Positions 27,794 to 44,063 of a stretch of DNA of 64,000 bases are shown here, in pieces. The translations under genes and the position numbers were made by a program. The notes under the pieces were generated by a model. It was given only the letters and a program-made list of their open reading frames with translations. It was not told the origin of the DNA and did no database searches. The stretch is taken from the IMG/VR virus record IMGVR_UViG_3300045988_158809; one strand, given 5' to 3'. Position 1 is the first letter of the stretch. Each line of letters opens with the position of its first letter. The stretch comes from a virus.

Positions 27794-28027
27794 AAAAAAA
27801 GGTTTTGAAGTTAAATTCTACATAGAATAACTCCAAAACCTCAGAACGTTTCCATTTTTCAGCATTGAAAAAGCAACAAATATGCCGAAAAACACGTTTT
27901 AAACCCAAAATTTCCGTGCCGTGCAAAATATGCCGTTGGCAAAGATAACTTTCCAATCAATAAGTAGTAGTTAATTATTAGTTAAATATTTTTCGCCACA
28001 ATGTTAACGCTGTACGAAAACCATATT

Positions 28028-28042
28028 AATTCACTGATTTTT
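28028..28042 (+). repeat. degenerate copy of the AAATCACTGATTTTT core
   Basis: AATTCACTGATTTTT, immediately 5' of the GC-rich island. Confidence 0.4.
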
Positions 28043-28044
28043 AG

Positions 28045-28345
28045 GCGATGAACGGCACGGGAAAAGTGTCTTTCGCGCGGAAAACCCGTCGCCACGCTAC
28101 GGGGCCGGCGGTCCGCACGGGGGCCGGTGGGGCTGGAAATATGCGGGTAGGGGGGCCCGGGGTGCGGTCCTGGTGTGCTGGTGTGTGGGTGCTTGGGTGT
28201 CCAGGTGGGCGGAGAAGGACCGGCGGCCGCCCCTTCTTGCTTCCCTGGTTGCATCGGGACGCGAAGGAAGACGACGAAGGCCGGCGGCCGTTCCTGATCC
28301 GTTGGCGGGTTGGCATGTTGGCGCGTGGGTGTGTAGGTGATTACG
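28045..28345 (+). other. G-rich, GC-rich non-coding island (structured RNA, genome terminus/cos, or R-loop candidate)
   Basis: ~300 nt with strong G excess on the + strand, including GGGGGGCCCGGGG. Contains the repeated CCGGCGG(C/T)CCG and a long imperfect hairpin at 28222-28292. ORFs here on either strand translate to Pro/Gly/Arg low-complexity sequence. Confidence 0.5.
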
Positions 28346-28402
28346 TGCGTGTATTGATTTCTGGCGTGTACAATATTTTTTTTGAAAATAAGTTGTATCT
28401 TA

Positions 28403-28434
28403 TTTGCATACTTAGAATATATGTAGTATATTTG
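28403..28434 (+). promoter_or_regulatory. Bacteroides-type promoter
   Basis: TTTG (28403-28406), 20 nt, TATATTTG (28427-28434). Lies ~48 nt upstream of the ATG at 28482. Confidence 0.6.
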
Positions 28435-28481
28435 CATACAGATAAAACAAAACAAGTAATAACATTCTAAAGCTTACGATT

Positions 28482-30629: not shown

Positions 30630-32390
30630 ATGACTTATTTCCAGAATATAACCAGCCTTTCAGAATTGAAAAAACAATACCGTGAACTTGTAAAGAACAA
30701 CCACCCGGATAAGGGTGGCGATATAGCCGTAATGCAGGATATTAACAACGAGTTTGAGCAGTTGTACAACATTTGGAAAGACAGAAAAGAAACTGAAGAT
30801 AATACAGGCTACGCCAACGACTACGAAGGTGCAACCGCTAAGCAGTACACGCAACACGTTTACGAGGAGTACGGCTGGACCGGCTCACGCCGTGACCGTT
30901 CGTACACACGTAAGGAACTGAAAGTAATTTTCGCTAAGTGGTTAAAAGAAACTTATAAGGGCTGTACATTCTCTATCAGTCTGAGCGGATATAATAGTAT
31001 TTGCGTGCGGCTTCTCAAAGCTGATTTTAACCCGTTCAAGGGCGATGTGAAATTAAAATATAGCTTTTCGCGCTACAGTATAACCGATGATCCGGAACTG
31101 AATGACCGAGCAAAAGAGATGTTTAATAACATAGAATCTTATCTCATGTCATACAATTATGACCACTCAGATTTAATGACCGATTATTACGATGTAGGTT
31201 TTTATTTTGACATGGAAATAGGAAGCGGTAAAACTCCGTTCAAAGTAGAGATACCGAAAAACCGCCGCGCGTCTGGGGCTTGTTCCGCTGAATTCAAGTA
31301 CAAGGAAGGGCCGGCACATCAGGCAATTAAAAAAGCGTTAGGCAAACAATACTTTGCCGATGTTGTAAATTATGGGTTAGTATTAGGTTCTGATTATATC
31401 TATAATGATAGCGTATTTTTTAGCGCAAATAATTATTCAGCGCCAAAAACTATGCGTAAAAAAATGGATAAACTTTTATCCGTTGGAATAGTTACAAAAG
31501 CTAAATACGGTTGTATTGTGTTCGTAGGTTATACTCCAGAAGTAGAAAAATCTTTAGCCGATGAAGACCGCGCAAAAGAAGAAGCGTATAAAAGATGGAA
31601 AGAAGAACAGGCCAAAGGAACAGCCGGAAAGTCTCACAAAGAAAATATATCCTATGGAGACGGAGAAAAATCACTGTTTTCTGACGGACAGGGAAGCGAA
31701 AAAATCGGCGAATTTGAACTTGTAAACTATTCGGAAAAAGCGTTTGCCGTTGTCGGCGACACACGCGAAATAAAGGATCTTTTAAAGGAAAACGGAGGCC
31801 GTTTTAATCCGGCGTTAACAGTTAACGGCGTGAAGTGTGCCGGCTGGATATTCAGCAAAAAGAGCCTTCAGGCCGTACGTCTGGCCCTGATAGGTTATAC
31901 TGTCCAGGATATAACAGTAGATCAGGAACAGCCGGAACAGGAACAGGCGCAAACGATTGAGCCGGACAAAGAAAATACATCCTATGGAGACGGAGAAAAA
32001 TCACTGATTTTTTTCAATGCTTTTGTATCTTTTTGGGATGCCGTTCAGGAAGTAATGAAAGAACAGCCGGAAGAAGAAAAACAGCCGGAGCCGGAAGATA
32101 TTGCAAAAGTGCTGGAAGTATTCCCGGCTTTACTAGATGCCGTTTGTGAAATAATGAAAGCGGAGCCAGGCAAGGAGCCACGGAACAAGGAACGCGAACA
32201 GGGTACCAATGAAATATATAATTCCGTTTGCTCCTCCGCTATTCTTTCGGGTGATTATATCAAGGCACGCCAGGAAATAAAACAGGCTATAAGGCAATAC
32301 CGTTTTACGTTGCCACAGCTCAAATATTTGATTTATATCCTGAATACTCACCCCGGCATAAAAAGGGAAAGCCACAGAAAGGCGGCATAA
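30630..32390 (+). CDS. J-domain (DnaJ-like) protein, apparently built from three modules
   Basis: N-terminal 'LSELKKQYRELVKNNHPDKGGD' carries the HPD motif. ATG at 30630. The ORF reads through two internal copies of the intergenic repeat. Confidence 0.7.
   Translation: MTYFQNITSLSELKKQYRELVKNNHPDKGGDIAVMQDINNEFEQLYNIWKDRKETEDNTGYANDYEGATAKQYTQHVYEEYGWTGSRRDRSYTRKELKVIFAKWLKETYKGCTFSISLSGYNSICVRLLKADFNPFKGDVKLKYSFSRYSITDDPELNDRAKEMFNNIESYLMSYNYDHSDLMTDYYDVGFYFDMEIGSGKTPFKVEIPKNRRASGACSAEFKYKEGPAHQAIKKALGKQYFADVVNYGLVLGSDYIYNDSVFFSANNYSAPKTMRKKMDKLLSVGIVTKAKYGCIVFVGYTPEVEKSLADEDRAKEEAYKRWKEEQAKGTAGKSHKENISYGDGEKSLFSDGQGSEKIGEFELVNYSEKAFAVVGDTREIKDLLKENGGRFNPALTVNGVKCAGWIFSKKSLQAVRLALIGYTVQDITVDQEQPEQEQAQTIEPDKENTSYGDGEKSLIFFNAFVSFWDAVQEVMKEQPEEEKQPEPEDIAKVLEVFPALLDAVCEIMKAEPGKEPRNKEREQGTNEIYNSVCSSAILSGDYIKARQEIKQAIRQYRFTLPQLKYLIYILNTHPGIKRESHRKAA
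31651..31680 (+). repeat. gene-end repeat copy inside the J-domain ORF
   Basis: CCTATGGAGACGGAGAAAAATCACTGTTTT, translated as SYGDGEKSLF. Confidence 0.8.
31981..32014 (+). repeat. gene-end repeat copy inside the J-domain ORF
   Basis: CCTATGGAGACGGAGAAAAATCACTGATTTTTTT. The 41 nt at 31966-32006 match 31636-31676 with one mismatch. Confidence 0.8.
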
Positions 32391-32427: not shown

Positions 32428-32461
32428 CCTATGGACTCCGACAGAAATCACTGATTTTTTT
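32428..32461 (+). repeat. gene-end repeat copy
   Basis: CCTATGGACTCCGACAGAAATCACTGATTTTTTT. Confidence 0.85.
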
Positions 32462-32499
32462 ACTTTATATTGAATCAATAAAAAAACATACACTACATT

Positions 32500-32691
32500 A
32501 TGAAAACAAAAAGAATGACAAAAGAAGAAGGCCAACGTTGCAATATTAGCAGATTCCCAAATTTTCATAAATCCGGAAGTATAAAAGGCATGAAACGTTT
32601 GTACTATGGCAAAAATGCGCTTTTGGTACGTTGTGGCGATTATATATACAATGTCACATCAGAACCGGAAATATATCAGGCTGCCAGATAA
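32500..32691 (+). CDS. hypothetical small protein
   Basis: 63-aa ORF flanked by repeat copies. Confidence 0.45.
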   Translation: MKTKRMTKEEGQRCNISRFPNFHKSGSIKGMKRLYYGKNALLVRCGDYIYNVTSEPEIYQAAR

Positions 32692-32694
32692 CAG

Positions 32695-32728
32695 CCTATG
32701 GAATCCGACAGAAATCACTGATTTTTTT
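32695..32728 (+). repeat. gene-end repeat copy
   Basis: CCTATGGAATCCGACAGAAATCACTGATTTTTTT. Confidence 0.85.
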
Positions 32729-32747
32729 AACTTAAAATATTAAAACT

Positions 32748-33176
32748 ATGTTTCAGAATATCAAACCTATATCAGAAAAGTCTTATAAAGTTTTTTCATA
32801 CCTGGCAGATGCAGCCAGAAACAGCAAAAACCATGCTATAAAAATAAAAAACTCAGAAACATATACCCCCGTTACAGTGGAAATAATTTTTTCTACTCCG
32901 GAGTATGAACACGTATCTATATGTCATTACGGCGAAATGAACGGCGATCTTATGGCCGATCCTGAAATGGTTTTCTTCCATGATAAAAAAGAAAATGTGG
33001 CTTATCCAGGTTATTACCTGAACCATTATGCCGGTATAGAACAAACATCTTTGCAATATGATGATTATGGTAAGCCGGTAGGCGTTAGAAGGGCTATGCA
33101 GCGCGGTCAGGCCGATTTTGCAAACATGTGGATGAAAAATATCGACGAACAGCAAGCTTTGGCCCTTATAGGATAA
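32748..33176 (+). CDS. hypothetical protein (resembles a domain seen on conjugative elements)
   Basis: 142 aa. 'HVSICHYGEMNGDLMADPEMVFF' recalls the DUF6908-type motif. Assigned from memory only. Confidence 0.4.
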   Translation: MFQNIKPISEKSYKVFSYLADAARNSKNHAIKIKNSETYTPVTVEIIFSTPEYEHVSICHYGEMNGDLMADPEMVFFHDKKENVAYPGYYLNHYAGIEQTSLQYDDYGKPVGVRRAMQRGQADFANMWMKNIDEQQALALIG

Positions 33177-33180
33177 TAAA

Positions 33181-33238
33181 CCTATGGCCCCATGGAAAAA
33201 TCACTCTATGGGGCTTGACAGAAATCACTGATTTTTTT
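33181..33238 (+). repeat. gene-end repeat, tandem doublet
   Basis: CCTATGGCCCCATGGAAAAATCACT followed by CTATGGGGCTTGACAGAAATCACTGATTTTTTT. Confidence 0.85.
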
Positions 33239-33252
33239 CTAACTTTGCAAAC

Positions 33253-33555
33253 ATGAATAAAGACTTTTACATATCGACAGAAAAAGGCGTTGAATGCGTT
33301 GTTCAATCTGCTTCCCCTCAGTACATCTTCCAGATTATCCGCACGACGGACGACGCGAAGTTCCGCGCTCTTATGGAAGACTCCACACAGTTATGCCTGC
33401 AGGTGCATCCAGATCATAACATTGCCATCCGGACGGCAGGTAATAAGGTGTATATAGCCATGACATCCGCCAACGTGGAACTTATATATAAAGAGCTTCA
33501 GGAAGTCAAGAGACAGGCTGCTGAATGGCTGTGTGAATACTACGGCATTAAATAG
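33253..33555 (+). CDS. hypothetical protein
   Basis: 100-aa ORF. TAACTTTG lies 5 nt before the ATG, so the mRNA may be leaderless. Confidence 0.5.
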   Translation: MNKDFYISTEKGVECVVQSASPQYIFQIIRTTDDAKFRALMEDSTQLCLQVHPDHNIAIRTAGNKVYIAMTSANVELIYKELQEVKRQAAEWLCEYYGIK

Positions 33556-33587
33556 TAGAATATTTTTAAAAATAATTGTAGTTTTAT

Positions 33588-33618
33588 TTTGCTGCATCAA
33601 AATAAAACCTTATCTTTG
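33588..33618 (+). promoter_or_regulatory. Bacteroides-type promoter (copy 1 of a duplicated promoter-leader)
   Basis: TTTG, 19 nt, TATCTTTG. The surrounding ~50 nt is nearly identical to 34302-34353. Confidence 0.65.
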
Positions 33619-33680
33619 TCACAGAATTAAGAAACAAACCATTAAAAGTGGGGGCAACACTATAAACACCGCGGAAAATC

Positions 33681-34271
33681 ATGAAAAATCAAGTAGTCAT
33701 TACCGTATTCACAAAAAAAGCTGAATACGAGCATCCGGAAGAATACAGAAGTTATGCAGGTGATACCGTATATCAGTGTATGGAAGACATATACTACGAT
33801 TATGAAATTGTAATGAAGTACGGTGTCTCAGCGTCCGACATTGCAGACCGTACGGAAATACTGGTAGAAAATACCGGCGATGCTTTCCGATATAATCCTC
33901 AAACCTGGGAGCACATCGAAAACATGAATCTCGATCCACAGCTCCCTCTGCTTCCCCTTATGAAGAAATCTTTTCTTCCCGCTCTGTTCCTGAGCAACAA
34001 CACAGACCGCCCGGAAGAAGAACAACGCCCGCGCCGTCTGAAGGGTTTTACCTTCGCCATTACCGGTACTTTGAGTACAAAGAGAAAGAACGCCGTGGCT
34101 TATATCCTGGCCAACGGCGGCGATTATCTGCCGCGTGTGACAAAGAATGTAGATTTCCTGATAGTTGGAGAGGATGCCGGCGACACGAAGACAGAACTTT
34201 GTGAGCGTTATGGAATACGGGAAATTTCCGAGTGTGATCTTAGAACTATGGCAGAAGGTAAGGCCGCATAA
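33681..34271 (+). CDS. BRCT-domain protein
   Basis: The C-terminal 'LKGFTFAITGTLSTKRKNAVAYILANGGDYLPRVTKNVDFLIVGEDAGDTKTELCERYGI' matches the LigA-type BRCT pattern. Confidence 0.6.
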   Translation: MKNQVVITVFTKKAEYEHPEEYRSYAGDTVYQCMEDIYYDYEIVMKYGVSASDIADRTEILVENTGDAFRYNPQTWEHIENMNLDPQLPLLPLMKKSFLPALFLSNNTDRPEEEQRPRRLKGFTFAITGTLSTKRKNAVAYILANGGDYLPRVTKNVDFLIVGEDAGDTKTELCERYGIREISECDLRTMAEGKAA

Positions 34272-34320
34272 TTTGATGATATAAAACATATTTTTCCATA
34301 TAAAATAATTGTGTTTTTAT

Positions 34321-34351
34321 TTTGCAAAAACAAAATAAAACCTTATCTTTG
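34321..34351 (+). promoter_or_regulatory. Bacteroides-type promoter (copy 2)
   Basis: TTTG (34321-34324), 19 nt, TATCTTTG (34344-34351). Confidence 0.65.
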
Positions 34352-34386
34352 TATCAGTGTTAAGGAACAAACATTATTTACTTTTT

Positions 34387-34413
34387 ACCGTGGTGGCAAC
34401 ACGTCAATTCAGC
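34387..34413 (+). repeat. 27-nt leader repeat ACCGTGGTGGCAACACGTCAATTCAGC (copy a)
   Basis: Identical to 34725-34751. A related GTGGGGGCAACAC lies at 33648-33660. Confidence 0.8.
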
Positions 34414-34422
34414 ATTATTTAT

Positions 34423-34710
34423 ATGACTAAAAATCTCAACGTATGGTGTACATTATTTCATGAAAGTGAATGTAAAATTTACATACAAGATGAAGATGGT
34501 GAAACACTTTCTGAATATCTACATGTCCAAGGAAATCCAATTTCTGTAAAAGAAGTATATAAAAAAACAGGAGAGATAAAAGGTTCTTATAAAGGGATCT
34601 GTGAATCTGTGAAAGAGATTAAAGAAAGAGAAAAAGAGTTTATGAAAAGAAATAAAGAGGATTTTGCGCGATATTACGGTAGAAGAGAAGCGGATAAATA
34701 CTTTAAATAA
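34423..34710 (+). CDS. hypothetical protein
   Basis: ATG at 34423 (MTKNLNVW) is preferred. The upstream part of the ORF overlaps the conserved leader. Confidence 0.5.
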   Translation: MTKNLNVWCTLFHESECKIYIQDEDGETLSEYLHVQGNPISVKEVYKKTGEIKGSYKGICESVKEIKEREKEFMKRNKEDFARYYGRREADKYFK

Positions 34711-34724
34711 AATATTCATTTATA

Positions 34725-34751
34725 ACCGTGGTGGCAACACGTCAATTCAGC
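34725..34751 (+). repeat. 27-nt leader repeat (copy b)
   Basis: Exact copy of 34387-34413, lying 10 nt upstream of the ATG at 34761. Confidence 0.8.
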
Positions 34752-34760
34752 AGACACATT

Positions 34761-35270
34761 ATGTTACTTTACGTCGAAAAAAAATCTTCACAGGAACAAA
34801 TTTATCAGTTTGCAAAAGAAGTAGGTGCAAAATGGATTGTAGTCAATTCAGATCATTATAAGGGAAACAATAAAGGGTATTACCAGGATGTAGAATCTTT
34901 CCGTAGTTCAACGGTATTCCACTGGAATTTAAAACCGGAAGATCGCGGTGCCATTTCTGTATATGTTACGGATATTGATATACCGGCTGCAGTGTCTAAG
35001 AGGATAGAATTACAGCGGGAAATAGTCAGACTTGATTACGATTTTCAGTTATTTATGAAAAAGATTGAGACTGATTATCCTTTGCAGAAAATAGATAAAA
35101 GATGGGGAGTAAATAACCCTAAAAGGCTGGAAATTGAGGAACTTAGAGATAAACGTAGAGAGGCGATAAAGAATGCTTGTGAAGAGCATGACAAAAATGT
35201 AGCTCATATCAAGTCAGAAATGATTTCCACTAATTTCGTTTCTTCCACATTTATAGAATTATCCTTATAA
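34761..35270 (+). CDS. hypothetical protein
   Basis: ATG at 34761 (MLLYVEKK). Confidence 0.5.
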   Translation: MLLYVEKKSSQEQIYQFAKEVGAKWIVVNSDHYKGNNKGYYQDVESFRSSTVFHWNLKPEDRGAISVYVTDIDIPAAVSKRIELQREIVRLDYDFQLFMKKIETDYPLQKIDKRWGVNNPKRLEIEELRDKRREAIKNACEEHDKNVAHIKSEMISTNFVSSTFIELSL

Positions 35271-35281
35271 TTTTTTATAAG

Positions 35282-35312
35282 CCTATGTACTTTCAGAAAA
35301 ATCACTGTTTTT
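35282..35312 (+). repeat. gene-end repeat copy (variant)
   Basis: CCTATGTACTTTCAGAAAAATCACTGTTTTT. Confidence 0.75.
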
Positions 35313-35337
35313 ATTAAACTTCATAAAATCAATTATC

Positions 35338-35826
35338 ATGAAACGTATTGTAAACATATTAAATATTAATCAGGCTGTATGCCGTTCCAGAGAAGACAAT
35401 ACAATAGTATCTTCTCTGGAAGATGAAAAATTATCTATAGCATTTATCGAGTCTTATCTAAATGGTAATATATGGGGAGTGTATTATCAAGAAGATAACC
35501 TGGTATATGAAACAAAAGACGGTGATATTTATTTCATGTCAGAAGATTGTGTGAAACTATCAGACGACGAACAATTACTTTTTGATACCAGCGATTTCGG
35601 CTGGAAAGTAAATCCGCAAAACTGGGTGTATCTTATAGGTACTGATAGTGTTGAAAAATTGGATTTGGAAGAAAATTCGGCCGATTCTGATAGCGATGTA
35701 TGTTACTATCAGGGAGAGTCTGGAGCCATGGTGACTGAAAAAGATAGTGACGGGACTGAGAATCCACTAAAATCAGGATGGTATCCGTGCTCCAGTTACA
35801 ATGAATATGTTGAATCTTATAATTAA
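35338..35826 (+). CDS. hypothetical acidic protein, paralogue of 29003-29290
   Basis: C-terminal 'CYYQGESGAMVTEKDSDGTENPLKSGWYPCSSYNEYVESY'. Confidence 0.55.
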   Translation: MKRIVNILNINQAVCRSREDNTIVSSLEDEKLSIAFIESYLNGNIWGVYYQEDNLVYETKDGDIYFMSEDCVKLSDDEQLLFDTSDFGWKVNPQNWVYLIGTDSVEKLDLEENSADSDSDVCYYQGESGAMVTEKDSDGTENPLKSGWYPCSSYNEYVESYN

Positions 35827-35835
35827 TTTGCTACA

Positions 35836-36273
35836 ATGAAAAAATTCAAAATATCACAAGACCAGATACATTATCAGGACGATAAAGTATTATTATCATT
35901 TGCAGTTGACAAAGGTGTACCGGGATATAATTCGCGTGAAAACAAGTTTTCTGAGCCGTTTGTGGCCGATATAGATGGCCGCATGTATCTTATACGGCCC
36001 GAAAATGTAACATCGTCCTCAGACGGTAAATTCTTCCTTATGGAAGCCGTAATGCCCGACCGCACCATGAACGACGCGGAAATCATTGGATGGAAACTGA
36101 AATGCGCCCGCCAGGACGCCGGGATTACATGCGATGAACTGGCCGATCGTGCCGGCGTGCGGCGTAACACAGTTGAACTCATTGAAAAAGGTTGTTTCAA
36201 CGCGAAAATCAATCTCATTTGCAGCCTGGCAGAAGCTATGGGAATGGAAGTAACACTCACCCCTATGGAGTGA
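35836..36273 (+). CDS. protein with a C-terminal XRE-type HTH
   Basis: 'IIGWKLKCARQDAGITCDELADRAGVRRNTVELIEKGCFNAKINLICSLAEAMG'. Confidence 0.65.
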   Translation: MKKFKISQDQIHYQDDKVLLSFAVDKGVPGYNSRENKFSEPFVADIDGRMYLIRPENVTSSSDGKFFLMEAVMPDRTMNDAEIIGWKLKCARQDAGITCDELADRAGVRRNTVELIEKGCFNAKINLICSLAEAMGMEVTLTPME

Positions 36274-36315
36274 CGGAAAAATCACTCTATGGCACCTCAG
36301 AAAAATCACTGTTTT
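36262..36315 (+). repeat. gene-end repeat, tandem doublet overlapping the stop codon
   Basis: CCTATGGAGTGACGGAAAAATCACT followed by CTATGGCACCTCAGAAAAATCACTGTTTT. Confidence 0.8.
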
Positions 36316-36597
36316 ATCGTCTAAATGTAAATAAACAAACGTAAGGCATACGGAAAAAACTGTATTAAATGGGTATTAAATATAAATTAAAAGCGCGACG
36401 GAGTACGCCGCGCTAGGATACTAAAAGTGTGAAGCAATTCACAAATGAAAACCTACTGATAGTAGATTTTCGTTTTAATCCACAAGGGAAAATCCCTTGA
36501 CGGCACAAAGATAGTATTTATCTTATATCCAAAAAATATTCATCATAATTTCTATACCTGTTTTATGAACTGAATTATTATTTTAAAAGAAAAATCA

Positions 36598-37263
36598 ATG
36601 AAAACACAAATAGAGAAACTTAGACAACTTTCAGATAAAAAGAAAGGTGTAGTAATGAATCAATATGTAGATGATTTATTACGCAATGGAAAAGCATATA
36701 CTGTACGGAGCCGGTATAGTGGACGTTACTACCATAAAAAGAGTTATACTGAAGAACTGGATAAACTTCTTACAGAGCATGGCATAAGCCATGAAATAGG
36801 AAACGACGCCCCTCGCGGTGGAATGAATGGTGAGTTTGTATCACTTAAAGGTACTGTGTTAAAGTATGTATTAGACCGCAAAAAGGAAAGAGAGGAATTC
36901 TGGAAAGCAGAACAAGATGGCAAGGATAAACAAAGGAAATTGGCTTATGAAAGATATAAACAGGAATGCGAAAAAACTTATAAGTTCTGCGTGGAGAATA
37001 ATATAGAAATTGATTTTTCTTACTTTACTGAAAAAGATAATGAAAGGTTTTTCCATCTTGATTATGACGATATAAAGAAGGAAAAATTAGGATATAAAAT
37101 ATCTATTCCTAAACGCTTTTACGGTATAGCATCGAGGTCTTCAGGTGTACATTCGAATGAAGGATTTCGTAGATACGTTAAAGAAAAACTGTTGTCTTCG
37201 GGTTTATCGCATGAAGGGTGCAAGATTACTAAAGTTTACGACTGTGGCGTTGGCGATGGTTAA
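36598..37263 (+). CDS. hypothetical protein
   Basis: 221-aa ORF. Confidence 0.55.
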   Translation: MKTQIEKLRQLSDKKKGVVMNQYVDDLLRNGKAYTVRSRYSGRYYHKKSYTEELDKLLTEHGISHEIGNDAPRGGMNGEFVSLKGTVLKYVLDRKKEREEFWKAEQDGKDKQRKLAYERYKQECEKTYKFCVENNIEIDFSYFTEKDNERFFHLDYDDIKKEKLGYKISIPKRFYGIASRSSGVHSNEGFRRYVKEKLLSSGLSHEGCKITKVYDCGVGDG

Positions 37264-37272
37264 TTTATACCA

Positions 37273-37309
37273 CCTATGGAGTTTCAGAAATATCACTGTT
37301 TTGTTTTTT
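37273..37309 (+). repeat. gene-end repeat copy (variant)
   Basis: CCTATGGAGTTTCAGAAATATCACTGTTTTGTTTTTT. Confidence 0.75.
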
Positions 37310-37322
37310 AATTATACTATTT

Positions 37323-37616
37323 ATGGACGAAAGATTTATAATTACACGATTTACTGACGATACAAACCGCTGGGCGTTGGAAGACACTGAGTTTGGAGTG
37401 TTGTATGAATATGTTGGCGCAGACCTTAACCCTGTAAATATCCTTACAGAAAAGAAAGGATTTTTCGACGGCAAGAAAGGACATCAGCGGATGGTTAATT
37501 TAGGAGTGGACGCTATCCAGTTCATCATAAAGAATCATGAGAAGATTTTCAGACTGGCCGAAATAGAAGAAGATGATATTGATGAATATCCGCAAATGGC
37601 GACAGAACTGAACTGA
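37323..37616 (+). CDS. hypothetical protein
   Basis: 97-aa ORF. Confidence 0.5.
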   Translation: MDERFIITRFTDDTNRWALEDTEFGVLYEYVGADLNPVNILTEKKGFFDGKKGHQRMVNLGVDAIQFIIKNHEKIFRLAEIEEDDIDEYPQMATELN

Positions 37617-37656
37617 GTTATCCCGAATAAATCCGTTTCTCTTTATTATATTCAAC

Positions 37657-37688
37657 CCTATGGACCTATAAAAATATCACTGTTTTTT
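37657..37688 (+). repeat. gene-end repeat copy abutting the next ATG
   Basis: CCTATGGACCTATAAAAATATCACTGTTTTTT. The T-run ends at 37688 and the ATG is at 37689. Confidence 0.75.
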
Positions 37689-38144
37689 ATGCAAGTATTC
37701 GTAACATCTACATCGTGTATCGAGACCGCCTCACAGCTCGACAAGAAAAGACTTAACAAACAGATTATAGAAGCCGGACAAATCCTTAAAGCCATAAGAG
37801 GGGAGGGGAAAGGCTGGCACCATCATCCTGCTACCCTGATGTATTCACACCACACGGCATGGCTGGAGCTTTACCGTCTTTGCCTGCAGGCCTACATGTC
37901 CGGCAACACTCAGGAGGCAGAAGCATACAGCCGACAGGCAGACGCGATACGTCCGCCCTTCCTGACAGACAGCCTTTGCGAGCAGCACAGAAAACGCCTG
38001 TTCACCAAAGCTCCGGAGCTATATCCTTTATTCCAGGCGTACGGCACGAGCCGCGAGAACTGGTATATTGTAGATGGCAGATTATTGAGATATATCGACG
38101 GCAAACTTATAAAGAAGCCTATGGAAAATGCCGGAAATCACTGA
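37689..38144 (+). CDS. pyrimidine-dimer DNA glycosylase-like protein (DenV/Pyr_excise-like)
   Basis: 'MQVF....ETASQLDKKRLNKQIIEAGQILKAI..GKGWHHHPATLMY' matches the remembered pattern MQTF..LD..RLGKQRVE..QIL....GW.NHPA..MW. Confidence 0.45.
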   Translation: MQVFVTSTSCIETASQLDKKRLNKQIIEAGQILKAIRGEGKGWHHHPATLMYSHHTAWLELYRLCLQAYMSGNTQEAEAYSRQADAIRPPFLTDSLCEQHRKRLFTKAPELYPLFQAYGTSRENWYIVDGRLLRYIDGKLIKKPMENAGNH

Positions 38145-38151
38145 TTTTTTT
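38118..38151 (+). repeat. gene-end repeat copy overlapping the last 9 codons
   Basis: CCTATGGAAAATGCCGGAAATCACTGATTTTTTT. The gene's stop codon is the TGA of the core. Confidence 0.85.
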
Positions 38152-38229
38152 ATTTATAATCGTGTCGGCAAAAAAAGATTGTAGTGAATACTGATTATAA
38201 TAGAAGTAACAATTAAAAATGTAGATATT

Positions 38230-39006
38230 ATGGGAAAATACGATTTCGATGATTCAATATATGACTATGAAGAAGAATTGTTTTATAACATTCGTTACTC
38301 AGACGATGTGACATTGATAGAAAATGTATCACATCTGCGTCATCACATAAACTGTCATGGCTTTAGTGAAAAATTATATGAGTATCTGAATATGGATTAC
38401 GAACAAATCTGTCAAGTGGTGGAATGCGCCAAAGGATCTATTTCTGTGGCAAGTCTGAGAAAAGATTTTAATGGCGTTATGGCTCCATTGATTGAGGAAA
38501 AACAGCGTAAAGAGGAAGCAATGGCAAAGAATGAAAAACTCATTGCCTGCCTGAAGGACAAAAGAAAAACTATGTGTGGAATAGGGACAAGAAAGCTGAA
38601 ACTGTTCCTTAACAAACTGATAAAGCAAGGTGACACAACAGCAGCTTTATATAGGACAGTACTGGAAGCAGAAGACTTTAATATTAAAGCAAAAGATACC
38701 CGTCTTGATTACAAGGAAAAAGTTTACGAAAAAAAGCATGAAGAAATACACAAACTGATAGAATTATGCCGTGAATATGGAGTCACGTTCGGGAAACAGT
38801 TGTCCGATGTCAGAGATACACGATATGTGGTTTATTTTGAACTGCCAAATATGGAACAAATCAGTTTTCATACGGATTTGATTGATGCCGGTAAGATACC
38901 CGACTATACGAAGGAGTGGGACGGCAAGCGATGTTCCACCCTCGGAAAGATTGAGAATGCCATTAATTTCAGATACAGAGATAGGATTGAAGAAGTCTAT
39001 AAATAA
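38230..39006 (+). CDS. hypothetical protein
   Basis: 258-aa ORF. Confidence 0.55.
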   Translation: MGKYDFDDSIYDYEEELFYNIRYSDDVTLIENVSHLRHHINCHGFSEKLYEYLNMDYEQICQVVECAKGSISVASLRKDFNGVMAPLIEEKQRKEEAMAKNEKLIACLKDKRKTMCGIGTRKLKLFLNKLIKQGDTTAALYRTVLEAEDFNIKAKDTRLDYKEKVYEKKHEEIHKLIELCREYGVTFGKQLSDVRDTRYVVYFELPNMEQISFHTDLIDAGKIPDYTKEWDGKRCSTLGKIENAINFRYRDRIEEVYK

Positions 39007-39089
39007 ATCTGAACCTATATTTATCAGGAATTATAATAATTGTTTCAATCTTATTGAGAAAACGATTAATGCACAGGCTTACAGAGTAG

Positions 39090-39124
39090 CCTATGGAACT
39101 TGACATAAATCACTGATTTTTTTT
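39090..39124 (+). repeat. gene-end repeat copy
   Basis: CCTATGGAACTTGACATAAATCACTGATTTTTTTT. Confidence 0.85.
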
Positions 39125-39137
39125 AAATATTGGAATT

Positions 39138-40088
39138 ATGGAAGAATTAGACAGACAGATAATTGAAATGTACCGTGCAGGCATAAAGGTGTCCGAAATT
39201 TGTCGTACATTGGGCACACACACCCAGAAAGTATATAAGGTGCTCCGAGAAAACAATATCTCGAAGAACGGACGCCGACTGACTCCGGAAGTTATTCAGG
39301 AAATTGCAGAAAAGCTTCGTCAGGATGTGCCATCTACAAAGCTGGCCGAACAGTACGGATGCTCCGTCTGGACCATACACAAGATTATGCGCGAAAACAA
39401 CATACCTATGCAGGTGGGCCGTCCGTGGCATCGCCGCAAAGACAAGCAGGCAGCATCCGCGCCATCTGCTCCCATCCCTGAGTCCTTACAAGCTCCCGAA
39501 ATGCCTGATTCGCTTCGCGCACTGGTCATGGCACCTGAAAACCGTACGTACTTTGCCTGTTTCCACAAAAACAAAAAAGAAGTGTCTTCTGCAGCCGAAG
39601 CGGTAGCCTTTCTGTATTCCGTCATGTCACGCCGTTTCACGCTGTCGTCCGACGACGTGACTCGCATAGAGCAGACATTTGCCCAGCTACAGGCATTCGA
39701 CAAACCGCGCCAGACGCTTGTATGCCCGCTCAGCATAAATGAAAATCTCCGTTTTAAGATTATGCTGGCACCGGAAGTGAACGCGCAGTACAGCGCATTC
39801 CAGAAGGGACGCGACGAGAGTGTGGTGAGATTGAAAAAGACAGACTGGCGGGCTTTTAATCCGGGCATGTACGGCATCTGTATTCCGGTAGGCGTGTATT
39901 CTGAGAATGGCGATGCGGTGAAGTATTACGACTTTAAGGGAGCGGTTCAGGCCGAATGCAAGGAGCAGGCATACGATCGTGCGCTGGATAAGTTGAAGGC
40001 AGAAACCGGTGAAGATCGTTTCAACAGCCTGAAAGTTCCTGGCAAGTACAGCGACAAGGTAAAATTCACTTTCAAGCCTATGGACTGA
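39138..40088 (+). CDS. DNA-binding protein with two N-terminal HTH motifs
   Basis: Duplicated 'IKVSEICRTLGTHTQKVYKVLRENNI' and 'STKLAEQYGCSVWTIHKIMRENNI' (Hin/resolvase-type HTH look). Confidence 0.5.
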   Translation: MEELDRQIIEMYRAGIKVSEICRTLGTHTQKVYKVLRENNISKNGRRLTPEVIQEIAEKLRQDVPSTKLAEQYGCSVWTIHKIMRENNIPMQVGRPWHRRKDKQAASAPSAPIPESLQAPEMPDSLRALVMAPENRTYFACFHKNKKEVSSAAEAVAFLYSVMSRRFTLSSDDVTRIEQTFAQLQAFDKPRQTLVCPLSINENLRFKIMLAPEVNAQYSAFQKGRDESVVRLKKTDWRAFNPGMYGICIPVGVYSENGDAVKYYDFKGAVQAECKEQAYDRALDKLKAETGEDRFNSLKVPGKYSDKVKFTFKPMD

Positions 40089-40134
40089 CAAAAATATCAC
40101 CCTATGGAGTTTTTGAGAAATCACTGATTTTTTT
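40077..40134 (+). repeat. gene-end repeat, tandem doublet overlapping the stop codon
   Basis: CCTATGGACTGACAAAAATATCAC followed by CCTATGGAGTTTTTGAGAAATCACTGATTTTTTT. Confidence 0.85.
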
Positions 40135-40154
40135 GAAACATTCATTCCATTAAA

Positions 40155-40802
40155 ATGAAAAAGAACAGATTGTTTGAAGAGCGTAAAAGAAAAGTGTCCG
40201 CAAAAGCCAAAGAATTGGTCGATTCAGCTTTTAAACGAATTGATGAAGAGCATGAACTTTTAAAGGACAAAAATCTGCCTAAAGAGGATTTATTTCAATC
40301 AATATCTAAAACAACAAACATGAAAAAAGAATTCACATTAGAACAACTCGTAACGATACGCGACGTGTTTGCCGACATGTGCGACAAGCAGATTGAACGC
40401 GGAAAAAGAGATTTGGCAGAAGAATATCTGGACATTGTGAATGTAGTTCAAGCCAAAACAGGATGCGACGAATACGAAAGTCTGGAAGATTTTCAACTTG
40501 ACGAGAGTGGAACTTACGGCTATGCGGAAAAGAGAGAGCTGGACGACCTGGAAGAAGTGGCAGTGGACGAAATGATAGCTTTCGCAAAGTCTTCTGACGA
40601 GCAGCCATGGGAAATACTGAAAGCGAGAGTAAACAATTATCTGGAGGATGTTTCGGCAAACACAGGCATGACCCGTAAGGACACAATAGACCGTAGAACC
40701 ATTTGCATAAACAGGCTAATTATTCATTGTATCCATGCCTGCACCAGCGAAGAATTGAAGCGTCTGGACGGGATAGTAAAAGAACTTGCAGAGAATTTTT
40801 AG
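40155..40802 (+). CDS. hypothetical acidic protein
   Basis: 215-aa ORF. Confidence 0.55.
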   Translation: MKKNRLFEERKRKVSAKAKELVDSAFKRIDEEHELLKDKNLPKEDLFQSISKTTNMKKEFTLEQLVTIRDVFADMCDKQIERGKRDLAEEYLDIVNVVQAKTGCDEYESLEDFQLDESGTYGYAEKRELDDLEEVAVDEMIAFAKSSDEQPWEILKARVNNYLEDVSANTGMTRKDTIDRRTICINRLIIHCIHACTSEELKRLDGIVKELAENF

Positions 40803-40905
40803 CCTATGGGCTCGGAGAAATATCACTCTATGGCATTTGCCAGAAATCACTGATTTTCCCACCTATGATTACGGTAAAAATATTTTACACTAAAATCACG
40901 CAAAA
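40803..40905 (+). repeat. gene-end repeat, tandem doublet plus a degenerate third copy
   Basis: CCTATGGGCTCGGAGAAATATCACT, then CTATGGCATTTGCCAGAAATCACTGATTTT, then CCTATGATTACGG..AAAATCACG. Confidence 0.75.
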
Positions 40906-40971
40906 AAGTCGCTACGAAAACAAAAAATTTCTACCGCGGTAGCAAAAAAACGCCTTCGTAGTCACATAAAA

Positions 40972-41011
40972 AATAAGCATACAGTCCGGTAGTTCTGTAT
41001 GCTTATTTTTT
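40972..41011. terminator. bidirectional rho-independent terminator
   Basis: 13-bp stem AATAAGCATACAG/CTGTATGCTTATT, flanked by an A-run and a T-run, between convergent genes. Confidence 0.8.
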
Positions 41012-41025
41012 ATTCAGATGTCGGT

Positions 41026-41642: not shown

Positions 41643-43187
41643 TTATTTTTGAACTATCTCATACTTAATCTTCGCCTTCTCGCCAAATGCAGCTTCCGAA
41701 GCCTGTTCCAGCAGGGGCTTGAAGTTTTCCTGAATATATGTGTAGAAGAATGCGGTAGGCACTTTAATCGTGACTGTACCGCAGCCCGTTCCGCCGTAAT
41801 CGAGAAAGCGTAGCCAGGTGTTATATTCCGTCACGGTGCAGTTGTTCTGAATCACGTCCATGAAGATTTGCCATGCCTGGAGTTCCTTTTCCGTAGGCTG
41901 CGGGGTGGGGGATGCTTCCTTCTCCTCCTGCTGCCCTTTCTGTTCCGGTGGTTCCGGGTGAGCTTCTGGCGTGCGGCTGGTGATGAAGTTCTTCAGCGAG
42001 GTGATGACGTATGCCTTTACTGAGCGCGGCTTGTATCGCTTCACCATATCGCCCAGTTCGAGCACATATTTGCGGAAGTCGTTCACCAGCTCGTCGGGAA
42101 GCATATCCGACAGGCCTTTCACGTCGGTATCGGTCAGCTTGTATTCGGTGCGAAGGAGCGTCCATGCGTCGGCAGGCTGGTTGATGCGCTTGCGCTGCTG
42201 ACGGAGTTCTTCGCCCAGTCCTGAAAGCTTTATCTGGAACTGCAGGTTTTCGGGGTTTCCCCGCTTTGCGCCATTCTTGTATAGCGGCTTGTAATCAAAA
42301 GTAAAGTCCACGAGGTTGTATTCAGAAAGTTCGTCCAGATCTTCCTTTATCGGGTCGAGCACAGTGGAACAGAAACGTGAAAATTTGGGGTAAATGTCCT
42401 TATCCACCTTCACCTTGTTTCCGTTCTTGTCAGTTTCGGTCACTTCCTCTATCAGTCCGAGGTACTTTTTAAGCTCTACAAGGTTGACTGATTTACTGCC
42501 TATATCCTTCCATCGGGTGAGGTAGATGTAGATGGAAGGGGTGCGCTTGCGCCGGCATATACGGGTGATGTGGCGAAGATGGTTCATGTATCCCAGTCCG
42601 TTTCCGAGGTCGCAAAGGTATCTCAGGGTATTAAGCGACATCTGGACTTCCACATAGTTTTCGCGCCGTGTGGTGCTTTTCTTGTATTTGTATGTGCCTC
42701 CGATTTTCTCTTTTTCGGGAATACTGATTTCGGTGAACACATTTGCGAACACGCGCCTTAGCTGACCTGTTTCGGCATCCCGGCGTATGTAAGTGACGGA
42801 CATGTTTTTCAGATTCCCGCACGTTTCCTGAAGGATATGATACGCGTCCGGCTTTACACCTATCGATGCGGTATCTACGCGCAGAGTGACTATCTTGTTT
42901 TCGGTCTGTTTATTGTCTTTCGACTTATCCAGGCACTCCGCAAGGTCGTTTTCTTCTGGCATTCCGAGTTCAGGGAAAAGTACGAGCTGACGCCCGGCAT
43001 TTCCTTTTTTCAGGTATTGGTTGAACTGGTCCTGCAGGGAGTTCATGAGTTCTATCATGATGCTTCGCTCCGTGAGGGTGAAGTCGCCTCCTATCGTGGC
43101 GTAAAGATACGGCTGCTTGATAAATTCACAGTCTTTCAGCTCGCTTACAAGCTGGCTTTTCGGCAGAATATCTTTCTGTTTTTTCAT
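41643..43187 (-). CDS. replication initiator (Rep_3-like) with a DnaA-N-like C-terminal domain
   Basis: N-terminal 'IKQPYLYATIGGDFTLTERSIMIELMNSL' looks like plasmid Rep proteins. C-terminal 'EYNTWLRFLDYGG..VTIKVPTAFFYTYIQENFKPLLEQA' looks like DnaA domain I. Adjacent to the iterons. Confidence 0.55.
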   Translation of the reverse strand: MKKQKDILPKSQLVSELKDCEFIKQPYLYATIGGDFTLTERSIMIELMNSLQDQFNQYLKKGNAGRQLVLFPELGMPEENDLAECLDKSKDNKQTENKIVTLRVDTASIGVKPDAYHILQETCGNLKNMSVTYIRRDAETGQLRRVFANVFTEISIPEKEKIGGTYKYKKSTTRRENYVEVQMSLNTLRYLCDLGNGLGYMNHLRHITRICRRKRTPSIYIYLTRWKDIGSKSVNLVELKKYLGLIEEVTETDKNGNKVKVDKDIYPKFSRFCSTVLDPIKEDLDELSEYNLVDFTFDYKPLYKNGAKRGNPENLQFQIKLSGLGEELRQQRKRINQPADAWTLLRTEYKLTDTDVKGLSDMLPDELVNDFRKYVLELGDMVKRYKPRSVKAYVITSLKNFITSRTPEAHPEPPEQKGQQEEKEASPTPQPTEKELQAWQIFMDVIQNNCTVTEYNTWLRFLDYGGTGCGTVTIKVPTAFFYTYIQENFKPLLEQASEAAFGEKAKIKYEIVQK

Positions 43188-43242: not shown

Positions 43243-43500
43243 TCAGCTTTTCACTTCGCGTATTTCGAAGTGTCTCTCTCCGCTGGTGAAGGTGGATACC
43301 ACGCGCGAGGTATCGTCTTCTATCAGACTGATGAATGACACGCCGAGCACCTGGGCCACTTTCTCCATAAACTCGGTGGTGCAGCTCAGGTGTCCGTTCA
43401 TGCGCTGTGAGAGCGCCACCGGAGTCATTCCGAGTTCCTGGGCAAGTTCTATCTGCGACATGCCTTTTTCTTTCAGAATTTCCTTTATTCTTAATTTCAT
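43243..43500 (-). CDS. XRE-family HTH regulator
   Basis: 'KEKGMSQIELAQELGMTPVALSQRMNG'. First gene of the reverse-strand operon, facing the iterons. Confidence 0.7.
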   Translation of the reverse strand: MKLRIKEILKEKGMSQIELAQELGMTPVALSQRMNGHLSCTTEFMEKVAQVLGVSFISLIEDDTSRVVSTFTSGERHFEIREVKS

Positions 43501-43601
43501 GATGAATGTGTTTTGTTTCCGGCAAAGGTAGAAATAATTTCTAAATAATGAAATATTATTCTGGCATATTTCTATAAATCGAAATTATAAGAAAATATAT
43601 A

Positions 43602-43738
43602 GTTGTAGTAATTTGTACCTTCAGGCTGAAAAGTTGTAGTAAATTGTACTAAATGTTGGGGTAATTTGTACAATAAGTTGTAGTAATTTGTACCAAATGT
43701 TGTAGTAAATTGTCCCTATAGTTGTAGTAATTTGTACC
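43602..43738 (+). repeat. iteron array (6 direct repeats)
   Basis: GTTGTAGTAA(A)TTTGTACC-type 18-mers start at 43602, 43633, 43655, 43677, 43699 and 43721. The last five are spaced exactly 22 bp apart. Confidence 0.85.
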
Positions 43739-43917
43739 GAAGCGTTTTTAATTTGCTGATTTTCAATTATTATTGCATCGTTATATATCTATATCTTATC
43801 ATTTCATATTTAAGCAGAACGAAAGGTATTTATTCTATAAATAATAATCTTTCCTCTTTTCCATATACTATGATGGATATATGATATAGAGAGTTTGTGA
43901 CGGTTGAATTTCAGAAG
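43739..43917. other. AT-rich spacer (candidate DNA unwinding element of the origin)
   Basis: Very AT-rich and ORF-free. Bracketed by oppositely oriented iteron arrays. Confidence 0.5.
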
Positions 43918-43932
43918 GTTACAAATGCGTTT

Positions 43933-44063
43933 GTACAAATTACTACAACATTTGGTACAAAACGCTCAAACATTAGGGGCAAAACGGTGCAACATTACGG
44001 CCAAAATGATACAGCATTAGGGACAAAAAGTTCCAACTATACGGTCACAAAAATAGCAGCCCC
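43933..44063 (-). repeat. second, inverted and degenerate iteron array
   Basis: GTACAAATTACTACAAC is the exact reverse complement of the iteron core. It is followed by about five degenerate units (..GGNCAAAA....CAAC) at 21-22-bp spacing. Confidence 0.7.

Follow-up and report, generated by a model that had tools for sequence, protein, structure and literature searches.

A repeated bipartite element at gene starts in the accessory array of an uncultured gut phage, a candidate phage-specific promoter that coincides with cassette breakpoints

In a 64,000-nucleotide stretch of virus DNA (IMG/VR record IMGVR_UViG_3300045988_158809; hereafter the window, meaning the whole stretch that was analysed), we detected a short bipartite DNA element that is repeated through an array of small accessory genes. 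The element is real, highly non-random and lineage-specific. We favour its reading as a gene-start rather than a gene-end signal, as judged by comparing sequences, and consider, with a probability of roughly 0.5, that it is a phage-specific, factor-dependent promoter, at which the host RNA polymerase would act with a factor encoded by the phage. That it is active as a promoter, where transcription starts and which protein is the factor are inferences. The source is an uncultured gut phage of the Bacteroides type with a genome of about 98 kb, of which about 84 kb were examined (the 64-kb window plus 20 kb in two further contigs, L018 and L119). The window has zero nucleotide or protein matches among about 50,000 deposited phages. 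A literature search with the motif strings returned unrelated primers only, and we did not find the element described in the searchable literature.

The pattern CTATG-N13-ATCAC has 17 exact matches in the window, all of which lie at 31.6-40.9 kb on the + strand; the - strand has none, and the chance expectation is 0.11 +/- 0.31 (100 dinucleotide-preserving shuffles). The core AGAAATCACTG was found 11 times with at most one mismatch, against 1.56 expected. Copies are confined to this 9.3-kb array, and none was found in the 20 kb examined beyond the window (L018, L119). Each copy is built on a 24-nt unit, in which CTATGG occupies positions 1-6 and is separated by eight free positions from ARAAAW (15-18/19), with ATCAC(T) at 19-24. 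The spacing is invariant in every copy, the second unit of a doublet starts exactly 24 nt after the first, and the last unit of each element is followed by G(A)T4-8; a T-run of 4-8 is present in 96 of the 117 unique terminal copies. Upstream, the element takes in the C at -1 and, at about -12 to -6, a TATAT-like box of moderate conservation, which gives a full element of about 45 bp (TATAT-like box, N4, C-CTATGG, N8, ARAAAWATCAC-T-G(A)T4-8). This length matches the 45-nt period of six complete elements that stand in tandem upstream of a 410-amino-acid (aa) gene in a relative (L013, IMGVR_UViG_3300029111_000017, positions 2561-2830). The two boxes are unrelated in the sequence logo, and inverted symmetry is limited to AAATCA-C-TGATTT and is gone in the TGTTTT and ATATCACGG variants.

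Much of this agrees with the initial annotation of the window, which had described the two boxes and the T-run, placed every copy on the + strand and listed loci all of which we recovered, including four doublets (33182/33206, 36263/36287, 40078/40102 and 40804/40828), two copies inside an open reading frame (ORF) that encodes a J-domain protein (31652 and 31982) and, where the array ends, a third copy that is degenerate (40862-40899). Its variable spacer of 8-12 nt does not hold, and its length of about 34 nt omitted the upstream box and the C at -1. At a further site, 28028, only the sequence TCACTGATTTTT is present and a properly spaced CTATGG is absent. Conservation is at the nucleotide and not the protein level, as had been proposed, and reading frames over the coding overlaps differ: the same DNA is read as PME, PMD or PMENAGNH, each followed by the stop, at gene 3' ends and as SYGDGEKSL in the J-domain ORF.

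The element is conserved in related genomes, which were searched by pattern scans. Scanning IMG/VR with CCTATGG-N10-AWATCACTG yielded three related contigs with many copies, and a metagenome scan with the doublet junction yielded about ten further contigs. Together, the relatives hold 146 unique copies, and those of each array lie on a single strand, which is the gene strand wherever genes were called. In the GTDB genomes searched, we found three chance single matches only. A diverged clade (L008, L010 and L014) carries the variant CTATGG-N8-GAAATATCAC-N-GATTTT, both in its intergenic copies and in the copies inside the ORF of a homologous J/LPD29 protein. Since the variant is common to both kinds of copy, intergenic and in-ORF copies evolve in concert at the DNA level. 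The in-ORF copies of J/LPD29 proteins encode [SAT]-Y-x-x-[STG]-E-[KI]-S-x, and the TAT and TCA codons are always used.

The initial annotation had called this a gene-end element. Our comparisons showed a closer association with the 5' side of the gene that follows than with the 3' end of the gene before. Measured from the unit start, the distance to the next ATG has a sharp peak at 40-59 nt (44 of 82 copies), and the median distance to the upstream stop codon is 14.5 nt. When the gene starts of 13 related arrays were classed, 66 had the element upstream, 16-20 a canonical TTTG-N19-TAnnTTTG promoter, and 18 were translationally coupled. None of the genes that precede a host-promoter gene has an element after its stop (in the window, 33253-33555, 33681-34271 and 34423-34710). 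The element also stays with the downstream gene when the neighbourhood changes: it is upstream in six of seven members of the 33253 family, next to four different upstream neighbours, and downstream in none of the seven; upstream in all seven members of the Pyr_excise family, with three different neighbours; and upstream in all nine members of the 40155 family, with four. The gene-start reading is favoured on account of the tight ATG distance, the movement with the downstream gene, the absence before host-promoter genes and the promoter-like geometry. Were the elements terminators, most genes between 35.3 and 40.8 kb would have zero promoters. A subset of copies is directly preceded by a terminator-like hairpin and then ATATA (for example, ATCAGGCGG..CCGCCTGAT followed by ATATAC), an arrangement that would be expected of a terminator followed by a promoter. 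Over all elements, the 52 nt upstream have a median fold of -8.2, compared with -7.1 in control windows, and were judged no better than the controls.

The geometry of the element parallels that of the canonical promoters of the same phage. The latter consist of TTTG, 19 nt and TAnnTTTG; the element consists of TATG (unit positions 2-5), 19 nt and G(A)TTTTTT (25-32), that is, GATTTTTT. Given the shared 19-nt spacing, the T-run occupies the place of the T-rich -7 box of Bacteroidota and CTATGG the place of the -33 box. In short Logan contigs, TTTG-19 nt-GTTTTTTA with the same AAAAATCAT core lies upstream of the gene for a protein that is 58-62% identical to an array protein with two helix-turn-helix domains (2xHTH). 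This is the element itself, its -33 box in canonical form. For want of the -7 G, the host consensus is matched incompletely, which suggests a factor-dependent promoter; in agreement with the initial annotation, the strict host-promoter pattern finds no match at any element. We propose that the host RNA polymerase with a phage factor would use the element as a promoter and that transcription would start in or just past the T-run, giving leaders of about 5-25 nt. The approximately 15-nt core, repeated before most accessory genes, would double as homology for the exchange, loss and gain of cassettes. Among the three hypotheses of the initial annotation, that of a promoter or operator therefore fits best, with the ATG distance, the linkage to the downstream gene, the exclusivity with host promoters and the geometry in its favour.

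The middle promoters of phage T4 offer a parallel for such a substitution. In these MotA-dependent promoters, a phage activator recognises a box at about -30 that stands in for the host -35 box, and the downstream element retains a host-like position. The present element would likewise combine a swapped upstream box with a downstream element in the host position, in many copies before small genes that may be early or middle. It differs in the sequence of its box, in the host sigma factor and in the -7 region, and MotA or AsiA homologues were not found. The intergenic repeats of the halovirus HF2 carry promoters (PMC8707807) and provide a second parallel, as virus-specific classes of intergenic repeat that proved to be promoters. 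They are archaeal and follow TATA/BRE sequence logic, with no evidence of a rigid bipartite unit. A host -33/-7 geometry with different boxes points to a phage-encoded specificity factor, for whose definition the roughly 150 natural sequence variants are a ready set. Almost nothing is known about the timing of gene expression in Bacteroidota gut phages that lack an RNA polymerase of their own.

Two HTH proteins of the array are candidates for this factor. The foremost is the 316-aa 2xHTH protein (39138-40088, + strand), which has two N-terminal HTH domains, resembles a paired/resolvase-like bipartite DNA binder and could read the bipartite CCTATGG / AAATCAC boxes. The other is a 145-aa protein with a C-terminal XRE-type HTH domain (35836-36273, + strand). 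While the gene content of the arrays is highly mosaic, these two proteins are present in nearly all of them and form the conserved core, and both of their genes end within unit 1 of a doublet. At only 15 clusters, with identity never below 58%, the 2xHTH family is narrow, and it is restricted to this phage lineage. Its double HTH was modelled confidently and shows weak resemblance to paired-domain and CRISPR-repeat-binding proteins (best E 0.015); this best match covers the HTH part alone, and the C-terminal domain has no significant match in PDB. A monomeric bipartite binder such as this one would suit a rigid asymmetric bipartite site. No 2xHTH homologue was seen in the diverged clade (L008, L010 and L014), of which the loci are partial; the single-sequence locus searches reached close relatives only.

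Genes for HU-HIG, the 145-aa HTH protein and a 322-aa 2xHTH protein were also found as a compact co-oriented trio in Logan contigs (L241-L245; SRR10427829, SRR32182651 and others). The trio adjoins a convergent gene with a B12-binding domain, and the element-like sequences there are degenerate only. It may represent an ancestral regulatory module or a different mobile element that carries the module.

Several observations weigh against the promoter reading. The Bacteroidota primary-sigma consensus is missed at both ends, by the lack of the -7 G and by TATG instead of TTTG in the -33 box. No gene follows the terminal doublet (40804-40857) or its counterparts in relatives, and in one member of the diverged clade (L008), the last copy is the 5' arm of a terminator hairpin. 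The T-run of one element abuts ATG 37689, which leaves no room for the predicted start unless the mRNA is leaderless or the transcript comes from an upstream copy; the leader of the relatives is 12 nt longer at this position. First units of doublets lack a T-run, and copies lie in frame within the J-domain ORF (586 aa). The T-run is not preferentially followed by a purine (C 49, A 46, G 9). No gene family was observed to change from the element to a host promoter or the reverse, so that the argument for functional equivalence of the two is one of position. No RNA polymerase or sigma factor was recognised with Pfam and PHROGs in the window, L018 and L119; a 1185-aa ORF in L119 is without PDB or Pfam match. 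Finally, every array-bearing contig that we found is a long metagenomic contig, with no transcript-derived assemblies among them. The terminal doublet, the hairpin in L008, the abutting ATG, the first units lacking a T-run and the absence of a base preference after the T-run are among the reasons for holding our confidence at about 0.5.

The element also coincides with changes in gene content. Three reconstructed relatives and 14 loci (17 related sequences) were compared by blastn with the window at 31-41 kb, and the ends of the matches were taken as breakpoints. Seventeen of the 41 unique breakpoints lie within 10 nt of an element, where 8.5% would be expected (binomial p ~1e-8). Most of the others fall on host-type promoter modules (33563-33683) or at 40306, where relatives hold an element that the window has lost. 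In one reconstructed relative (relA), two genes (32462-33201) are swapped for one different gene, and 630 nt are inserted at element 35283. The cassette 36316-37283 is missing in relA, relB, L101, L104, L108 and L109, and the segment 38153-39073 in L104, L108 and L109. In the J-domain gene, a 330-nt in-frame domain lies between 45-nt direct repeats that hold the element, and relA lacks this domain. At the 3' junction of the 145-aa HTH gene, the variable segment CACCTCAG is joined to three leaders in relatives, and one leader is joined to several segments. These mixed joins indicate crossovers inside the conserved ARAAATCACTG-T core, which explain the constant 24-nt phase of the doublets, unit 1 belonging to the upstream gene and exchanges taking place within unit 2.

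The loss of the element near 40306 implies that two genes were fused into ORF 40155-40802. This ORF looks fused: the relatives have a 171-aa gene, the element and a 160-aa gene at this position, homology to eight relatives starts at 40306, just past their T-run, and the internal ATG 40331 corresponds to the start of their second gene. A comparable observation concerns the J-domain/LPD29 'polyvalent-like' protein (30630-32390, with homologues in L008, L010 and relB), which carries one to four in-frame element copies at its linkers. These precede a small YSEKAxAV..GGRFNP..GWIFSKK domain, and because the number of domains differs between relatives, the protein grows and shrinks at the element.

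As evolution goes, the idea of a recombination scaffold put forward in the initial annotation is thus borne out by the breakpoints and chimeras; a dedicated recombinase was not found. Since breakpoints also fall on promoter modules and no dedicated recombinase turned up, the recombination role looks like a by-product of a repeated regulatory sequence, and we regard it as a consequence of such repetition, in the manner described for T4-type phages, and not as a dedicated site-specific system. The promoter-early stem-loops (PeSLs) of T4-type phages combine host sigma-70 promoters with a stem-loop terminator (PMC2839356, PMC4122927). Like them, the present element is a short, conserved, co-oriented intergenic motif that is dense in a hyperplastic region of small genes of unknown function and sits in the space from one gene's stop to the following gene's start. 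In both systems, indels and replacements between close relatives are bounded by the motif, and homologous exchange between copies shuffles cassettes. The present element differs in having neither a host promoter consensus nor an obligatory stem-loop, in being a rigid 24-nt bipartite unit with phased abutting doublets and in-frame gene copies, in a promoter activity that is predicted, and in the host phylum (Bacteroidota) and phage type. It belongs to the PeSL-like class of phage 'mobile regulatory cassettes', and this principle is thereby extended from T4-like coliphages to an unrelated phage lineage in another host phylum.

Whatever the mechanism, the swaps of accessory genes between related gut phages, genes with a probable role in host takeover or anti-defence, are resolved here at the nucleotide level. 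Among the exchanges at the approximately 15-nt conserved core is one in frame, which swaps a domain of a polyvalent J-domain protein. The motif can also serve in practice to mark hypervariable accessory-gene arrays in metagenomes.

As an alternative to the promoter, a phage HTH protein might bind the element as an operator or roadblock and silence the array by an orientation-dependent, 'stoperator-like' block to elongation or initiation, with no promoter activity. We consider this unlikely, though several features would suit it. The stoperators of cluster A mycobacteriophages (L5 gp71, TipsytheTRex repressor) are 13-mers spread genome-wide, asymmetric and tied in orientation, and are bound by a repressor that acts as a monomer with two DNA-binding domains on an asymmetric site (PMC9283540). 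The element similarly occurs in many asymmetric copies in short intergenic spaces, its orientation strictly follows transcription, and the monomeric two-domain repressor is a plausible analogue of the 2xHTH protein. The exact 24-bp phasing of doublets and the six-fold tandem array suggest cooperative binding, in-ORF copies and terminal copies lacking a gene would be tolerated, the conserved core of the array consists of HTH genes, and the plasmid-like Rep and iteron origin of the phage is consistent with a carrier state dependent on silencing. However, the element is about 45 bp long with a T-run, stands at a fixed distance from the start codon and is restricted to a single 9.3-kb array instead of being genome-wide. 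An operator would leave the conserved T-run and the tight ATG spacing unexplained and most accessory genes still without a recognisable promoter, and as the element is absent at host promoters, the genes behind these would escape silencing.

It is improbable that the element acts at the RNA level, as a leader or intercistronic element for processing, stability or translational control, or as a U-rich, unstructured enhancer of translation for the Shine-Dalgarno-poor Bacteroidota. Its short fixed ATG distance, its strand specificity and the U-run right before the start region would agree with such a role, and transcription from the host promoters that lie upstream (29396, 33588 and 34321) would run through it. 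Conserved secondary structure and Rfam matches are nevertheless absent, and the TATAT and CCTATGG boxes are conserved though often located inside the preceding ORF. The terminal copies have no following gene, the first units of doublets have no U-run, and copies within ORFs would be cleaved or bound within the coding region.

A further speculation unites both activities in one sequence, and we give it only a slim chance: the element would serve for recognition as well as crossover in an unknown phage-borne cassette platform in which promoter and recombination site are the same sequence. There, with just as small a probability, the lineage-restricted, paired-like double-HTH protein would read the bipartite CCTATGG / AAATCAC boxes, switch on accessory (probably counter-defence) genes and catalyse or direct their exchange. 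It is no more probable that such a platform, integron-like and lacking a tyrosine recombinase, could shuffle domains inside the polyvalent protein gene.

A dedicated integron-like site for site-specific cassette exchange, run for example by the 2xHTH protein, appears less probable still. Breakpoints at elements and chimeras that cross over in the core agree with it, as do co-oriented elements, arrays that start and finish with an element (the terminal gene-less copy included), a domain-sized cassette in an ORF flanked by the element and a conserved 2xHTH protein whose C-terminal fold has no known match. There is also, as for integron attC sites, about one site per cassette, in a single orientation and at cassette boundaries. 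However, attC sites are imperfect inverted repeats that fold as single strands and need the tyrosine recombinase IntI, and both features are absent here. In integrons, the cassettes lack a promoter and have the site at their 3' end, whereas the present element travels with the 5' end of the gene. Neither tyrosine or serine recombinases nor DDE or HUH domains were detected near the array. Breakpoints fall equally on the host-type promoter modules at 33563-33683, as expected of generic homology-driven exchange, and the lambda-exo-like exonuclease that the genome encodes at another place suggests a module for general recombination. The position of breakpoints within the element varies (5' edge, middle or 3' edge), and abutting doublets are not what would remain after site-specific recombination.

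Equally doubtful is a hairpin-independent, sequence-specific terminator or pause signal, which the initial annotation had compared with the T7 class II signal (ATCTGTT followed by a U-run). A T-run of 4-8 does follow the conserved core, the element is close to the upstream stop, and terminal copies stand at the end of the array ahead of a convergent gene. The resemblance of ATCACTGTTTT to ATCTGTT is loose, and the core ATCACTG(A)T(n) does not match that signal. We detected neither a T7-like nor another phage RNA polymerase in the 84 kb examined, and the bacterial enzyme needs a hairpin, of which there is none; hairpin terminators proper serve at other places in the window, and some copies stand directly behind one. 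Further points that disfavour termination are the lack of elements at the ends of genes that precede a host-promoter gene, the promoterless state in which it would leave the genes past each element, and the copies inside the 586-aa ORF.

Other identities were rejected. The element is not an intrinsic terminator since no hairpin precedes the T-run: a U-tract is present and a G+C-rich hairpin is absent. The 39 nt before the T-run have a median minimum free energy (MFE) of -3.0 kcal/mol (110 copies), compared with -3.4 for shuffles and with -16.7 and -23.2 for real terminators of the window, which upholds the earlier remark that no stable hairpin forms. A structured RNA, tRNA or ribozyme was rejected for lack of Rfam or ARAGORN matches and of structure enrichment upstream. 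Promoters of crAss-like phages or of virion RNA polymerases were rejected as the window has no similarity to known phages; the phi14:2 paper reports its early promoters to be without a common motif. An integron-like integrase beside the array was sought in the Pfam and PHROGs scans, which found no recombinase domain in the ORFs of the window, including the divergent ones at 26909-27793 and 27982-28437 (both - strand). RNA-guided transcription by dCas12f-sigmaE, described in Bacteroidota (PMC13472631) and suggested by the variable middle segment, was rejected because that segment is just 8 nt long and such genes are absent. A set of Rep iterons was rejected because genuine 22-bp iterons sit beside the rep genes (43598-44055) and are unrelated in sequence.

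In the window, the copies (all + strand) begin within the J-domain/LPD29 gene. The first in-ORF copy (31651-31680; read as SYGDGEKSL) is the left direct repeat of the 110-aa domain indel and the second (31981-32014) is the right one; the 45-nt repeat at 31966-32010 is 96% identical to 31636-31680. A single element follows 38 nt past the stop of this gene (32428-32461), its 24-nt unit ending 47 nt before ATG 32500, and another (32695-32728) lies between genes 32500-32691 and 32748-33176. The first doublet (33181-33238, with units at 33182-33205 and 33206-33229 plus T-run) is upstream of gene 33253-33555, and homology with relatives begins within it, at 33202-33206. The single element at 35282-35312 is a CTATGT variant upstream of the gene pair 35338-35826 / 35836-36273. 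In the second doublet (36262-36315), unit 1 (36263-36286) supplies the final codons of the HTH gene 35836-36273 together with its stop (PME and stop), and unit 2 (36287-36310) is chimeric in relatives.

The single element at 37273-37309 is upstream of gene 37323-37616 and forms the right boundary of cassette 36316-37283, and that at 37657-37688 is the one whose T-run abuts ATG 37689 of the Pyr_excise gene. Upstream of gene 38230-39006, a single element (38118-38151) overlaps the 3' end of gene 37689-38144: the 24-nt unit and the following GA lie inside this gene (..KKPMENAGNH and stop), whose stop is the TGA of the element, and the T-run (38145-38151) is just past the stop. Another single element (39090-39124) is upstream of the 2xHTH gene 39138-40088 and is missing at this junction in relB. 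Unit 1 of the next doublet (40077-40134; unit 1, 40078-40101) encodes PMD and the stop of the 2xHTH gene, and unit 2 (40102-40125) is upstream of ORF 40155-40802. The array finishes with the terminal doublet and the degenerate third copy (40803-40899), comprising units 40804-40827 and 40828-40851, a T-run to 40857 and the third copy at 40862-40899. Beyond the doublet there are only about 100 nt, followed by a bidirectional terminator (40966-41013).

The window clearly belongs to a tailed phage. In Pfam and PHROGs scans, it was found to encode tail proteins, a GH108 endolysin, DNA methyltransferases, a PAPS reductase, radical-SAM and HU proteins. The genome upstream of the window encodes a 1659-aa tape-measure protein, a reverse transcriptase of the diversity-generating retroelement (DGR) type and the lambda-exo-like exonuclease. 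Between the Rep3/DnaA_N-like initiator genes (41643-43187 and 43243-43500, both - strand) and divergent genes at 44.1-44.9 kb, we found six direct copies (43598-43738, approximately AAGTTGTAGTAATTTGTACC) and five inverted copies (43924-44055) of the 22-bp iterons, which locates the real iteron set apart from the element. A plasmid-type replication origin in a tailed phage of about 98 kb could reflect a phage-plasmid lifestyle.

The DGR-type reverse transcriptase adjoins tail-fibre-like genes (L018, 18-1067, and L120-L149). It recurs with 94-100% identity in about 30 IMG/VR contigs 55-120 kb long, almost none of which has the element. The structural module is therefore widespread and the element-bearing array restricted to a sub-lineage.

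Five Bacteroidota-type promoters with the strict TTTG-N19-TAnnTTTG pattern were found on the + strand of the window, at 21337, 28403, 29396, 33588 and 34321. The last four are upstream of genes within the accessory region, and that at 21337 is 773 nt from the next gene. A segment at 28060-28340 is unusually G+C-rich and rich in G-runs (GGGGCCGG-type repeats) amid surroundings of 40% G+C. It overlaps a minus-strand ORF (27982-28437), and the host-type promoter that comes first in the accessory region follows shortly downstream.

Within cassette 36316-37283, which several relatives lack, we found a candidate antisense-oriented small RNA of about 115 nt (36385-36513, minus strand) with a -7 box TATCTTTG at 36513-36506(-). 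It has four predicted hairpins (MFE -42 kcal/mol, z = -6.7), an intrinsic terminator at 36414-36392(-) and no Rfam match. A host-type promoter module of about 110 nt (TTTG-19-TATCTTTG) occurs in two copies, 33563-33680 and 34290-34420, which are also synteny breakpoints. The leader motif GTGG(G/T)GGCAACAC lies upstream of three genes, at 33648, 34390 and 34728 (three sites, with 0.07 expected); regulatory RNA and operator element are possible roles for it.

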